Positions 50,407 through 58,309 of a stretch of DNA of 64,000 bases are shown here, in pieces. The notes beneath the pieces were generated by a model. That model saw only the letters and a program-made list of their open reading frames with translations. It did no database searches and was not told the origin of the DNA. The translations under genes and the position numbers were made by a program. How positions within the stretch are numbered: the first letter of the stretch is position 1; every line of letters begins with the position of its first letter. Source of the DNA: a phage; the sequence record NC_101835.1; one strand, written 5' to 3'.

Positions 50407-50469
50407 TCATTGACATAACCACACGGACGTGGTATTGTTGCCTCATAAAATGTTTAGGAGGGTTTAACC

Positions 50470-54448: not shown

Positions 54449-54608
54449 CTGGAAAGGTGTTGTTGCAGATCGCTGCGTTACTGAGCCTAATTTATGGTTT
54501 GGCTCTACAGAGTATCATAAAGAAGAGCAGTGGTTGATGCGTGCCTTCGATGTAGACAAGGGCGAATATCGTGACTTCGCTTTAAAAGACATTCTTCAGT
54601 TTTACTAA
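54387..54608 (+). CDS. hypothetical protein
   Basis: 73 aa; ATG with GAGGAGAGAG RBS; overlaps the preceding gene in another frame. Confidence 0.25.
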   Translation: MGMKKVFNPCDSVLIRMKYRNWKGVVADRCVTEPNLWFGSTEYHKEEQWLMRAFDVDKGEYRDFALKDILQFY

Positions 54609-54620
54609 GGAATCTTAACG

Positions 54621-55604
54621 ATGATGACAAAGTTAACTCTTGAGCAAATTTTAACACTAAAGCAACAGGGATACACTAATAGACAAATTGCTCGTGAATT
54701 TTTAGGCCGTGAGTCACGTGAGAGCTGGATCCGACTACAGCTTAAACGTGCACAAGAGAATATGTCAGAGATTGTAGGAGAAGCAACGGAGCGCTTCCTT
54801 GAAGAGCACAAAGGCGCTAAAGTTTGGGTGTATGATACAGAGACATCCCCAACAAACGGCTGGTTCTTTGGGCACTATAAGACCAACATTCAAACCTGTG
54901 GTATTGAAGTTATGCCTTATATGCTAACTTTCGCAGGTAAGTGGTTAGACAGCCCTAGTGTGGTTGACTGCGCTCTTCCCGATTACAAAATGTGGGATGA
55001 GGATATTCACAATGATCTCGAATTGATTCAGGATTTGTGGTATTATCTGGATAAATGCGATGTCGCAGTAGTCCACAATTCAGGTTTTGACTGCGGGTGG
55101 GCCAACCAACGATTTGCATTTCACGGGTTGCCTCCAACAAGCCCCTACAAAGAGGTTGACACCCTTAAAATGATCAAGAAGGCATTCCGTTTGAATGCAA
55201 ACACTTTGGAGTATGCATGCAAATACTTCCAACTGGCCAGACAGAAACTGATTGATCACACATTTGAAATGTGGATCAAGTGTGTCCATGGCGATCTTGA
55301 GGCATTTAAACAGATGCGGGAGTATAATGTTGGTGATATCCTGTCTCTGGAAGGACTGTATTTGCTGGCTCGCCCGTTTGCTAAGCAGCACCCAAACATG
55401 TCATTGTACTACCAGGACGAGGAGCCAAAGGTTCGTTGCCCACGCTGTGGTGGAGAACACCTTCACGAGGAAGAAGCTTTGGCATATACTCAGCTGAGTG
55501 CATTTAAAACATACCGCTGCGAAGGTTGTGGATCTGTTGTTCGTGACCGTAACAACATCCGTACCAGAGAAGAAATGAAAAACACCCTGATTCAGATAAT
55601 CTAA
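54621..55604 (+). CDS. DEDD-family 3'-5' exonuclease with C-terminal zinc ribbon
   Basis: 327 aa; Exo I VWVYDTETS, Exo II VVHNSGFDCGW, Exo III EYNVGDI; C-terminal CPRCG...CEGCG; N-terminal TNRQIAREF helix-turn-helix-like segment. Confidence 0.65.
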   Translation: MMTKLTLEQILTLKQQGYTNRQIAREFLGRESRESWIRLQLKRAQENMSEIVGEATERFLEEHKGAKVWVYDTETSPTNGWFFGHYKTNIQTCGIEVMPYMLTFAGKWLDSPSVVDCALPDYKMWDEDIHNDLELIQDLWYYLDKCDVAVVHNSGFDCGWANQRFAFHGLPPTSPYKEVDTLKMIKKAFRLNANTLEYACKYFQLARQKLIDHTFEMWIKCVHGDLEAFKQMREYNVGDILSLEGLYLLARPFAKQHPNMSLYYQDEEPKVRCPRCGGEHLHEEEALAYTQLSAFKTYRCEGCGSVVRDRNNIRTREEMKNTLIQII

Positions 55605-55611
55605 CAATTAT

Positions 55612-55640
55612 AGGGAGGCTTGCGCCTCCCTTTTCCTTTT
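55612..55640 (+). terminator. rho-independent terminator
   Basis: GGGAGGC-TTGC-GCCTCCC followed by TTTTCCTTTT, directly after the stop at 55604. Confidence 0.5.
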
Positions 55641-55649
55641 GGAGGCACT

Positions 55650-56468
55650 TTGAGCAAGAAAGAGTCCAACGACAAATATTACACAAACCCTGAGTATGCA
55701 GAATATCTTGTTGGTAAAGTAAAAGATAAGTATGGGAATTGTGCATACGTTGAGCCTTCTGCTGGAAGGGGTTCTTTTTCAAAACTATTTTCAGAGATAC
55801 TGTCGTACGATTTAGTACCAGATCCTGAATTTGAAGGACCAACACCGTGCATTCAGGCAAACTTCTTGGAGGTTCATCCCAAGGCAGATGTCTTCATAGG
55901 TAACCCACCATTTGGCAAGAATTCATCTTTAGCTTGCAAATTCTTCAACCATTGTGCATCATTGCTAGAGCTTGGAGGGGCTATAGCCTTCATCTTGCCA
56001 CGGACATTTGAAAAAATATTTTTTGCAAACAAACTGGACATGTCGATGCACCTTGTCTACAGCGAAAGGTGCCCTAAGAATTCGTTTTTACTTAATGGCA
56101 AACCTTATGACGTGCCATGTGTTTTCCAAATTTGGGAGAAAAAGGAGTGCAATAGGGATCCTGTAGAGATTGGGGAGAATAGGTTATTTTCTTTTAGCAC
56201 TCCAGATGACTACGACTTCTGTGTAAGACGTGTTGGGTATAATGCTGGAAAAGTATTGGGGGAGGATGACCCAAAATCTGAAGAATCAACATATTTCATA
56301 AAATCTTTAGTTGACGGTGTTGACAGAGTGTTTGCTGAATGCTATTCTTCCTTTCAAGAAGAAGCAGGTAAGACTGCCGGAATGAAGAGTATAGGTAAGA
56401 AAGAACTACAATACATTTTGGAGACTAGGTATGATCAAAAGCATAGACTTGACCAAAGAACTTACTGA
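55650..56468 (+). CDS. N6-adenine DNA methyltransferase (orphan)
   Basis: SAM motif I VEPSAGRGSF followed by catalytic motif IV NPPF; probable TTG start at 55650 with GGAGG RBS (track ORF begins upstream inside the terminator). Confidence 0.6.
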   Translation: MSKKESNDKYYTNPEYAEYLVGKVKDKYGNCAYVEPSAGRGSFSKLFSEILSYDLVPDPEFEGPTPCIQANFLEVHPKADVFIGNPPFGKNSSLACKFFNHCASLLELGGAIAFILPRTFEKIFFANKLDMSMHLVYSERCPKNSFLLNGKPYDVPCVFQIWEKKECNRDPVEIGENRLFSFSTPDDYDFCVRRVGYNAGKVLGEDDPKSEESTYFIKSLVDGVDRVFAECYSSFQEEAGKTAGMKSIGKKELQYILETRYDQKHRLDQRTY

Positions 56469-56889
56469 TGCAAAAGCTTTTGGTGAGACAGCGGTACAAA
56501 GGGGGCAGGCGATGGGACTGGCACTACCTTTCGTCTTAAAAGAGCACTTTACAGATTTTCAACTTATCAAGGGCGATAAGGGAATGCTTATCCTGGAGCA
56601 TAAGTTGAGTAAGAAACGCTACAAAGTTGTTTTTAATTCTAAAGCTCCAACAAAACTTGGATTCAGAACTTACAATCTCAACCCATCCTATACTAAGGGT
56701 GTTGGAAGGGTAGAACAACAGCATTTCAGTGCTAGAGCTTCTTTAGCCCCTTTGATGCTAAATTTCTCAGGGGTGGCTTTAGGATACCTTGACAAGAAAA
56801 GAGTTCTTCATGTCCGTTTCACAGACTTTGTAACGCTTTTAGCTAACAACGAAGTTGATGAAAAGGGACGTGTAAAAACAAACTTCTAA
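56431..56889 (+). CDS. hypothetical protein
   Basis: 152 aa; ATG with GGAGAC RBS, overlaps the methyltransferase 3' end. Confidence 0.35.
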   Translation: MIKSIDLTKELTDAKAFGETAVQRGQAMGLALPFVLKEHFTDFQLIKGDKGMLILEHKLSKKRYKVVFNSKAPTKLGFRTYNLNPSYTKGVGRVEQQHFSARASLAPLMLNFSGVALGYLDKKRVLHVRFTDFVTLLANNEVDEKGRVKTNF

Positions 56890-56916
56890 TAACGCATAGT
56901 ATGATTGGAGACCGCA

Positions 56917-57108
56917 ATGACACTAAAGTTAACAATTCCAGACAGCTTTTCAGAAAACTTTATCCCAGAAATGATGGGTAAGATGCGATCATTGCTTGAT
57001 CAGATTGAGGAAGCTGTTTGGGAAGACGATGCTGTAGTGGCTAACGAGCTGGTAGATAAGTGTAAAAGTATTATTGATGCAGTTGAAGAATACCACGGAG
57101 GTTTTTGA
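56917..57108 (+). CDS. hypothetical small acidic protein
   Basis: Track ORF trimmed to ATG (MTLKLTIPDS...) with GGAG RBS. Confidence 0.3.
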   Translation: MTLKLTIPDSFSENFIPEMMGKMRSLLDQIEEAVWEDDAVVANELVDKCKSIIDAVEEYHGGF

Positions 57109-57722
57109 TGGATATTATTGTTCTTAACGCCCCACCCAGCAGTGGTAAGGATCACATTGCAGATCTCTTGTTGGAAGCTATTCCTAACTCACACCACCGT
57201 GAGGTTAAGGAGATGCTCTTCAGTGTGGCAATTAAGGGAGCTGGCGTAACTCCTCAACTCTGGAATGCACTTTATGACCGCCACTACAAAGAAGAGCCTT
57301 GCCCTTTCTTAATGATAGACGGCAAGCATGTTTCTCCGCGAGAATGGATGATCCATTGTAGTGAAAATCTGATTAAACCTATCTTTGGTGAAGATGCTTT
57401 CGGTAAAGCCGCAGTCGCATCTTTGAAGAAAGATTTCCCTAAAGGTAAAGGGGTTGTTGTTTACTCCGATGGTGGATTCAAAGAGGAGCTGGCATGCCTT
57501 AGCGAGTACGCGTACAGCACAGGTGGAGATCTGTTGTTGTTCCGTATTCACCGTGTCGGATATGACTGGGGAAATGATTCCAGAACCTATCTAAGTCTGG
57601 AAAAGAACGGAATAAAAGGAATTGAGTTCGATGTTGTAAACCCTGAAGGTGCACCTTGGGAATGTGCATCGGAGATTGTGTGCAAGTATATTGATGCTAA
57701 AGAGGCCCAAGAAGAATGTTAA
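57108..57722 (+). CDS. putative deoxynucleoside monophosphate kinase
   Basis: Track ORF trimmed to ATG (MDIIVLNAPPSSGKD...); P-loop NAPPSSGKD resembles the phage dNMP kinase signature; neighbours are nucleotide-metabolism genes. Confidence 0.45.
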   Translation: MDIIVLNAPPSSGKDHIADLLLEAIPNSHHREVKEMLFSVAIKGAGVTPQLWNALYDRHYKEEPCPFLMIDGKHVSPREWMIHCSENLIKPIFGEDAFGKAAVASLKKDFPKGKGVVVYSDGGFKEELACLSEYAYSTGGDLLLFRIHRVGYDWGNDSRTYLSLEKNGIKGIEFDVVNPEGAPWECASEIVCKYIDAKEAQEEC

Positions 57723-58309
57723 TCGGTATTGATGTAGATTTGACACTGGTAGATTCAGGAACAGCATGGTGGGAGTGGTTGGAGCGTTTATATGGTCCAG
57801 CCAGTAAGACAGTCGCTAAACCTTCTAATGGGCTGATGTATTACGATCTGTCAAAGTATTGGCCTGATCGCCCCAAAGAAAACATCATAGGACCTTTTGA
57901 TTTCTGGAGTGACCCGTTCCTCTACGACTTTCTTAAGCCCGAAGAGGGGGCTATTGAGGTTATGAAAGATTTGGTGGCTCGTGGTCACAAGCTTGCATTT
58001 ATCTCGGTATGCAAGAAAGGTCACCTTGCATCTAAATCAAGGTTCTTAAAGCGTTGGACCAGTGATTTTATGGATCTGGACGATCACACCCAGGGTCACG
58101 GCTTCTACGCCACACATTTCAAAGGAAATGTGGCTGTAGATGTTATAATTGACGACAGGCATGAATACCTGAACCAATTCGCTTCACGACCTGAAGTTAT
58201 TAAAATCCTAAAAGATACGCCTTATGAGCAATTCGAGGAGTTAAAGGTCAGTGTTGACTATACCGCTAACAGCTGGTATAAAATAGGAAAGTTTTTAGAA
58301 GGTATTTGA
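57716..58309 (+). CDS. HAD-superfamily phosphatase, candidate 5'-(deoxy)nucleotidase
   Basis: 197 aa; N-terminal motif I GIDVDLTLVDS (DxDxT) and C-terminal DVIIDDR. Confidence 0.55.
   Translation: MLIGIDVDLTLVDSGTAWWEWLERLYGPASKTVAKPSNGLMYYDLSKYWPDRPKENIIGPFDFWSDPFLYDFLKPEEGAIEVMKDLVARGHKLAFISVCKKGHLASKSRFLKRWTSDFMDLDDHTQGHGFYATHFKGNVAVDVIIDDRHEYLNQFASRPEVIKILKDTPYEQFEELKVSVDYTANSWYKIGKFLEGI

Follow-up and report, generated by a model that had tools for sequence, protein, structure and literature searches.

We analysed a 64,000-nucleotide (nt) stretch of phage DNA (sequence record NC_101835.1; hereafter the window), in which a putative adenine methyltransferase (MTase) gene, the orthologue of gp096 of phage rV5, starts on a TTG codon shortly after a terminator-like hairpin. 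The best explanation of the locus as a whole, which we hold with moderate confidence, is that the hairpin, the MTase gene and the overlapping gene gp097 form an exchangeable cassette derived from a compact Type II restriction-modification (R-M) system, that the cassette is transcribed by read-through of the hairpin, and that gp097 is a relic of the restriction endonuclease (REase). The sequence observation itself, a hairpin followed by GGAGG and an MTase gene starting on TTG, is correct but already public and annotated: the same MTase coding sequence is in GenBank for rV5, Murica and MaxTheCat, and in Murica the terminator and the ribosome-binding site (RBS) are annotated too. What is added here, with computational support only, is the three-part cassette and the predicted restriction-enzyme ancestry of gp097.

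The whole cassette, consisting of the hairpin, a U-rich tract, a Shine-Dalgarno (SD) sequence, the TTG-initiated MTase gene and gp097, occupies 55613-56889 on the + strand (1.28 kb). We compared the entire 6.5-kb pig-gut phage contig L097 with the entire 64-kb window by BLASTN. The results showed one high-scoring segment pair, joining L097 2182-3459 to 55613-56889 at 78.3% identity, which began at the initial G of the stem and ended with the stop codon of gp097; the flanks were unrelated. Because this single segment pair is bounded by the hairpin and the gp097 stop codon, the hairpin, U-tract, SD sequence, MTase gene and gp097 appear to move as a unit, and by this alignment the hairpin belongs to the cassette rather than to the exonuclease gene that precedes it. 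In the pig-gut phage contigs L096-L099, the MTase and gp097 were found at about 80-85% amino acid (aa) identity and at a different genomic site, where the pair follows ~780 nt (about 1437-2180) and lies next to a divergent RNA ligase operon. No open reading frame (ORF) of more than 50 aa, no tRNA and no Rfam match was found in this ~780-nt stretch; it sits in loci with an overall identity of 88-93%, has no equivalent in the window, and could be a regulatory or noncoding RNA region. The sole candidate for terminal repeats was a 13/16 inverted match (55620-55635 with 56860-56875), which joins the 3' arm of the hairpin and the U-tract to a segment that shortly precedes the stop codon of gp097, close to the cassette ends; it was among 24 comparable pairs in 1.4 kb and is probably due to chance.

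The second gene of the cassette, gp097 (56431-56889, + strand), overlaps the MTase gene by 38 nt and encodes a 152-aa basic protein with a predicted restriction-endonuclease-like fold; the rV5 protein has an isoelectric point of 10.0. Its SD sequence, GGAG (56420-56423, + strand), lies inside the MTase coding sequence, and an RBS is annotated there in Murica. The product is called 'hypothetical' in the four public annotations inspected and in nearly all of the 185 phage records carrying it. The predicted structure contains the alpha-beta-beta-beta-alpha-beta core of the PD-(D/E)XK fold, and the fold matches include solved nucleases of ~150 aa, namely NhoI (155 aa), I-Ssp6803I (148 aa) and PvuII (157 aa). 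Searches of Pfam, NCBIfam and PDB sequences with gp097 returned nothing significant, and a search with the PADLOC REase profile PDLC03550 matched neither gp097 nor its branch of the family. A more distant branch of the same family matched this Type II REase profile with E-values from 2e-9 to 8e-5, and hhalign aligned the gp097 branch with the REase branch over 111 columns (probability 95.1%, E 3e-8). A profile built from the gp097 branch only, searched against 1.84 billion proteins, reached proteins in which the canonical signature is present: P0177, which carries WD...VECK (E 3.6e-6), as well as P0178 and P0182, each of which carries D...EVR. The motif P-S-x-x-(K/L)-G-x-G-R is common to both branches. 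These profile comparisons indicate a remote homology between gp097 and a curated family of Type II REases.

We then compared the catalytic positions of the two branches. In gp097, the residues that are invariant in the REase branch, D75, (D/E)85-x-K87 and the helix residue E56 (L015 numbering), are aligned with L53, K65, V67 and P33; 26 of 26 gp097-branch sequences showed these replacements and no canonical D...(D/E)xK at the aligned positions. The ratio of nonsynonymous to synonymous substitution rates (dN/dS), at saturated dS, was 0.05-0.07 for gp097 and 0.04-0.06 for the MTase, indicating strong purifying selection on both genes. The most economical reading of these alignments is that gp097 descends from a restriction enzyme, has lost conventional catalysis and has kept a function tied to the MTase. 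It is most likely no longer a conventional nuclease, and has probably been kept alongside the MTase as a partner that binds DNA.

The linkage between gp097 and the MTase was surveyed by searching every ORF of the fetched loci with an iterated profile, which yielded 29 members of the gp097 family. The results showed that 27 of them directly adjoin an MTase homologue, lying upstream, downstream or in convergent orientation. In Phapecoctavirus, a gp097 homologue of 30% identity is located immediately upstream of the MTase orthologue, and in four further lineages gp097 homologues abut MTase homologues with overlapping stop and start codons. The two genes are thus adjacent and co-inherited, as in a Type II R-M system, and what gp097 lacks of such a system is the set of catalytic residues by which an endonuclease partner is recognised. 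An orphan MTase is one with no linked restriction-enzyme gene or relic, and here gp097 is present. The initial annotation had called the MTase an orphan with no cognate restriction enzyme nearby; this is not supported, as the overlapping gp097 is homologous, though divergent, to the small Type II REases that are normally found with this MTase family. In a separate lineage (L092/L093, 4001-4432), a gp097-family gene stands between the primase-helicase and DNA polymerase A genes with no MTase gene adjacent, and there the small gp097-type protein may function independently of the MTase.

The role of gp097 could be taken further. As a tentative possibility, gp097 might be a domesticated, catalytically dead REase that reads the DNA site of the MTase, possibly in a methylation-sensitive manner, with the cassette serving to mark self and non-self instead of to cut, and the hairpin as its insulator. 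If this were true, gp097 could tell DNA that lacks the methylation (host or competitor) from the methylated DNA of the phage itself, or could target or regulate the MTase, and the hairpin insulator would let a promoter-less cassette enter any operon at a safe expression level.

It is also conceivable, though we consider it unlikely, that the cassette is an active miniature R-M system, in which gp097 cuts unmethylated DNA through a non-canonical site and gp096 protects the phage DNA; such a system might degrade host DNA for nucleotide salvage or exclude competing phages. The restriction-endonuclease fold of gp097, its tight linkage to the MTase, the solved nucleases of similar size among its fold matches and the purifying selection acting on it are all consistent with this proposal, as is the position of the cassette among nucleotide-metabolism genes, both here and in L091 and L094. 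Furthermore, the gp097 branch has conserved polar residues of its own (E56, K65, D82, K89 and R93), which could form a rearranged active site. However, the catalytic residues of the REase branch are replaced in every gp097-branch sequence aligned, D82, which is nearly invariant in the family, is N in this phage, and gp097 has no direct match to an REase profile.

At the 5' end of the cassette, the terminator-like hairpin AGGGAGGC-TTGC-GCCTCCCT (55612-55631, + strand) has an 8-bp stem with six G-C pairs and a tetraloop, and a predicted folding energy of -15.7 kcal/mol. The stem is followed by TTTTCCTTTT up to 55640, then by GGAGG, CACT and TTG. The U-rich tract directly 3' of the hairpin, TTTCCTTTT (55632-55640, + strand), has a CC interruption, and the SD sequence GGAGG (55641-55645, + strand), annotated as an RBS in Murica, stands 4 nt (CACT) before the TTG. 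A G+C-rich stem-loop followed by a U-tract (UUUUCCUUUU, broken by CC) is the form of an intrinsic terminator. The hairpin ranked first among terminator-like sites in 8 kb and was unique within the window, where the chance expectation was 0.03 matches. The rV5 genome paper lists it as terminator t099, at -15.3 kcal/mol, found independently with ARNold (PMC3606486, Table S4), and the rV5 and Murica hairpins are the same as that of the window except for one base at the stem base. The GGAGG directly behind the T-tract of a terminator hairpin is thus as first described, and the hairpin is the published one.

The hairpin is kept in relatives whose synonymous sites are saturated, and the U-tract is kept in rV5, in FV3 (TTTCATTTT) and in L096-L099. 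The stem GGGAGGC/GCCTCCC of the window becomes GGGAGAT/ATCTCCC in the related contigs, with compensatory changes in two of seven stem pairs (G-C to A-U and C-G to U-A). In this alignment of six sequences from two clades, 95.2% of cells were paired, a value reached by 5 of 500 shuffles, and this covariation gives modest support for a conserved structure. No Rfam family matched the leader. Two other pairings were considered and rejected: sequestration of the SD sequence by the U-tract (UUUCC with GGAGG, 55632-55645) would be weak, adding about -4 kcal/mol, and is broken or weakened in FV3 (UUUCA), and pairing of the 3' arm GCCTCC with GGAGGC would be far weaker than the hairpin.

The same features can be given a different meaning, one that we doubt: the hairpin might be no terminator at all, and might instead form a stabilising stem-loop of the 5' leader, followed by a U-rich element that boosts translation and makes up for the weak TTG codon. 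Through ribosomal protein S1, leaders rich in U can stimulate initiation. In line with this proposal, the hairpin travels with the MTase gene and not with the upstream gene, and L096-L099 have no co-directional gene within 780 nt upstream. However, the two contexts have unrelated sequences upstream of the hairpin, and neither contains a convincing promoter within 60 nt, so the hairpin is unlikely to lie at a defined 5' end. Moreover, the 8-bp G+C stem, tetraloop and U-tract have the form of an intrinsic terminator, on which ARNold and the Murica annotation agree.

The start codon of the MTase gene was assigned from the reading frame and from homologues. The frame opens after an in-frame TAG at 55611-55613; upstream of motif I it contains no ATG or GTG, and the only candidate starts are the TTG codons at 55620 and 55650. 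In most of the 120 homologues listed, the N-terminus lies 5-9 residues ahead of the D-x-[YF]-Y-T motif, and many start with MSKK or MSKx. Because these N-termini fit the position, a start at 55650-55652 (+ strand) is supported and is the only plausible one. A start at 55620 was rejected: this codon lies within the hairpin loop, 1 nt after an SD-like arm, and would add ten residues that the homologues lack. The claim that no ATG precedes motif I and that the TTG 4 nt after GGAGG is the only plausible start is thus confirmed by the frame and the homologue N-termini. The TTG start is kept in orthologues at about 85% identity (L096-L099, with GGAGG-N4-TTG) and at 55% identity (Phapecoctavirus, with AGGAGG-N4-TTG). 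The Phapecoctavirus sequence reads AGGAGG-ACTA-TTG-AGC-AAG and has no hairpin, and the gene pair there has a terminator and promoter of its own. In 10 of 78 IMG/VR loci, TTG was the sole possible start. TTG is a weaker initiator than ATG, and its conservation suggests selection for modest translation of the MTase. A TTG start behind a strong SD sequence, together with the hairpin, would keep the MTase level low.

The hairpin lies 18 nt from the start codon, and no promoter fits in this gap; none was found between, or overlapping, the hairpin and the start codon, either by scan or by eye. Since no promoter fits there, + strand transcripts reaching the MTase gene must pass the hairpin. The nearest + strand promoters of the rV5 paper map to window positions 50410 (P090), 58254 (P105; 58254-58281) and 59524 (P107) (PMC3606486). 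With P105 at 58254-58281, the MTase gene, gp097, gp098, the deoxynucleoside monophosphate (dNMP) kinase gene and the HAD phosphatase gene therefore all lie behind the hairpin, and the promoter-less cassette and the three genes after it would be transcribed from upstream promoters through it. At 56320-56348, in the 3' end of the MTase gene upstream of gp097, TTGACA-17-TATTCT resembles a promoter (10/12 match, with a TG extending the -10 element), but L097 has not kept this site at the corresponding position, and it is probably due to chance. For Vequintavirus, no methylome or transcriptome data were found in the literature.

The gene upstream of the hairpin is a DnaQ-like exonuclease gene (54621-55604, + strand; stop codon TAA at 55602-55604), and the hairpin stem begins 7-8 nt after this stop codon. 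In Escherichia coli, the lambda terminator tR2 is almost fully repressed when placed 8-9 bp from a stop codon and reaches an efficiency of about 0.9 only beyond 30 bp (PMC4824070). Because a terminating ribosome represses terminators at such a distance, read-through is probably the rule here and not a regulated exception. By this analogy, the terminating exonuclease ribosome probably suppresses the hairpin in this phage, which would make it a weak attenuator while the exonuclease is being translated; behind untranslated sequence, as in L097, the hairpin would terminate at its intrinsic strength. In the explanation that we favour, the hairpin would thus be a leaky intrinsic terminator, a built-in insulator of the promoter-less cassette.

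The initial annotation had seen here a solitary anti-restriction MTase whose self-methylation is coupled to upstream transcription by regulated terminator read-through, which we now regard as quite improbable. Phage-borne MTases often protect against host restriction, no promoter fits between the hairpin and the start codon, and no canonical REase domain is annotated nearby, all of which agree with that proposal. Against it, gp097 is homologous to REases and in many lineages is linked to this MTase family. Behind the hairpin lies a block of five genes and not the MTase gene only, and the hairpin moves with the cassette to a site without an upstream co-directional gene; in addition, the distance of 7-8 nt from stop codon to hairpin predicts constitutive suppression by ribosomes. 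The dependence on read-through is therefore upheld insofar as the 18-nt gap holds no promoter, but it is not specific to the MTase gene. The anti-restriction role fared worse. Vequintavirinae of the BASEL collection, which include MaxTheCat, were reported to be 'exceptionally susceptible' to R-M systems, without effective protection (PMC8594841). Because of this sensitivity, a broad anti-restriction role of gp096 is unlikely; one of narrow specificity is possible. Outside the cassette, the rV5 record contains a second, Mod-like adenine MTase (133637-134962; ORF 235, PF01555), so that rV5 has two adenine MTases, yet the related BASEL Vequintavirinae are restriction-sensitive.

The MTase gene itself (55650-56468, + strand; stop codon TGA at 56466-56468) encodes a 272-aa protein, the orthologue of rV5 gp096 (ORF 100), predicted to be a gamma-class N6-adenine DNA MTase. 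We aligned 119 MTase homologues and examined the conserved motifs. Motif X, DKYYT (residues 8-12; 55671-55685), has D8, Y11 and T12 invariant or nearly so. In motif I, VEPSAGRGSF (55749-55778), which would bind S-adenosylmethionine, residues E35, P36, G39, G41 and F43 were invariant, as were G84, N85, P86, P87, F88 and G89 in and around the catalytic motif IV, NPPF (55902-55913). D54 was likewise invariant, and the C-terminal domain was conserved. The order of motifs X, I and IV, followed by a small C-terminal target-recognition domain, is that of the gamma class. The protein shows a class I Rossmann MTase fold and a second domain comparable with those of solved DNA adenine MTases, although the Foldseek TM-scores were below 0.5 and the second domain was only loosely similar. 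The PADLOC profile MTase_II PDLC03255 matched the protein over its full length (E 1.1e-33). No significant match was obtained in NCBIfam or in a PDB sequence search, and PHROG 5172, to which the MTase belongs, is of 'unknown function'. Some relatives carry a precomputed match to PF26055 (Mtase_EDM2), which was not reproduced with the local Pfam copy.

Small Type II REases of the families PDLC03550 and PDLC03460 are found repeatedly next to homologues of the MTase, and in one bacterial genome such an MTase-REase pair has Type I M and S genes adjacent to it. Because of the full-length Type II MTase profile match and the REase-adjacent homologues, we read gp096 as a DNA MTase; these relationships indicate a DNA N6-adenine MTase that descends from an R-M system, and it would methylate adenine in a short site on phage DNA. 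Its identification as an N6-adenine-type enzyme from motif I VEPSAGRGSF and motif IV NPPF had been proposed at the outset, and the motifs and the profile agree with it.

Several results weigh against the explanation that we favour. Besides the conserved polar residues of gp097, which could form a relocated active site, the Pfam model Eco57I scored 16 bits on the MTase against a cut-off of 25.3, and the matches to both Eco57I and N6_Mtase were below threshold. The stem covariation comes from six sequences in two clades and is effectively one or two events, and an A.C mismatch in L096 and L099 weakens the stem to -5 to -6 kcal/mol. Finally, in its catalytic domain the MTase resembles enzymes that form N6-methyladenosine (m6A) in RNA (METTL5 and PH1948) as closely as it does DNA enzymes. 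That gp096 is an rRNA or tRNA m6A MTase of the METTL5/COG2263 type is nevertheless very improbable, as the alignments to the RNA enzymes are limited to ~150 residues while those to DNA MTases extend over 228-246 and take in the C-terminal domain, the Type II MTase profile matches the full length, homologues repeatedly adjoin REase families, and gp096 is not a single-domain protein of ~200 aa like the METTL5/COG2263 enzymes that act on rRNA.

The window belongs to an rV5-like Vequintavirus. The 2.6 kb around the MTase gene was 99.9% identical to Escherichia phage A6-1 and shared 98-99% identity with over 100 rV5-like members of the genus Vequintavirus, with rV5 at 98.5%; MaxTheCat was 99.5% identical to the window in DNA sequence over 54600-57200. 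The + strand neighbours are, in order, genes for an RuvC/RNaseH-like protein, endonuclease VII and the DnaQ-like exonuclease, then the MTase gene, two small ORFs, and genes for the dNMP kinase, the HAD phosphatase and ThyX. About 20 records titled 'Campylobacter phage' (host C. jejuni, unannotated; H5-H7, H17, H18 and others) were 98-99% identical here to the E. coli rV5-like phages, which suggests that they are mislabelled or contaminant assemblies.

Beyond this genus, many MTase homologues were found in giant-virus metagenome bins and other large viral contigs (L039, L050, L072/L076, L082 and other GVMAG loci), and several of these have a small REase-family gene in convergent orientation. 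The same type of R-M system thus appears to be in circulation among both phages and giant viruses. In Cronobacter phage GAP32 (L006, 596-1990), an MTase homologue with an ATG start comes after a DUF262 gene and an unannotated stretch, and this stretch translates to an HNH-like motif (…DHFISLAIGGSNKITNLRPTHERCNKIKG…).

A TTG start behind a terminator is routine and annotated, and the novelty lies in the context of gp097 beside the MTase. If confirmed, the cassette would clearly exemplify the repurposing of an R-M module inside virulent phages, would explain why rV5-like phages carry an MTase despite their high restriction sensitivity, and would offer a defined, promoter-less, three-part cassette open to testing. 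The analysis also assigns a putative DNA-MTase role and R-M ancestry to a poorly annotated MTase family of more than 790 clusters, which includes giant-virus metagenome-assembled genomes and did not reach the thresholds of the Pfam and NCBIfam copies used.

We finally compared the cassette with known systems. The closest is the orthologous locus of rV5 (gp096 and t099) and Murica (CPT_Murica92), which has 98-98.5% DNA identity, the same TTG and the same GGAGG; none of the annotations and records inspected treats the hairpin, MTase and gp097 as one unit. For the hairpin, the likeness to the lambda tR2 test system (PMC4824070) is that a hairpin and U-tract stand a few bases after a stop codon, and the effect here is predicted by analogy; the difference is that the same hairpin has no upstream ORF in the related contigs. 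Among DNA MTases, M.TaqI, M.BseCI, CamA and the MTase module of MmeI are larger (421-550 aa, against 272 aa for gp096), with 14-20% identity and TM-scores below 0.5. METTL5, PH1948 and Ta1320 (COG2263) are single-domain proteins of ~200 aa, whereas gp096 has an additional conserved C-terminal domain of 150 aa and R-M synteny. In the PADLOC cassettes that combine MTase_II (PDLC03255/03256) with REase_II PDLC03550 (or PDLC03460), homologous MTases stand beside REases in all three gene orientations. By comparison, gp097 misses the REase profile and is without D...(D/E)xK, its kinship to the PDLC03550 branch being remote, and the phage cassette sits in a replication and nucleotide-metabolism region of a lytic phage without a promoter of its own. 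The solitary phage MTases T4 Dam and P1 Dam resemble gp096 in being phage adenine MTases without a demonstrably active restriction partner. In contrast to them, gp096 is of another MTase class, a putatively restriction-derived gene is kept adjacent to it under selection, and its carriers in the BASEL collection showed no protection from the R-M systems tested there.

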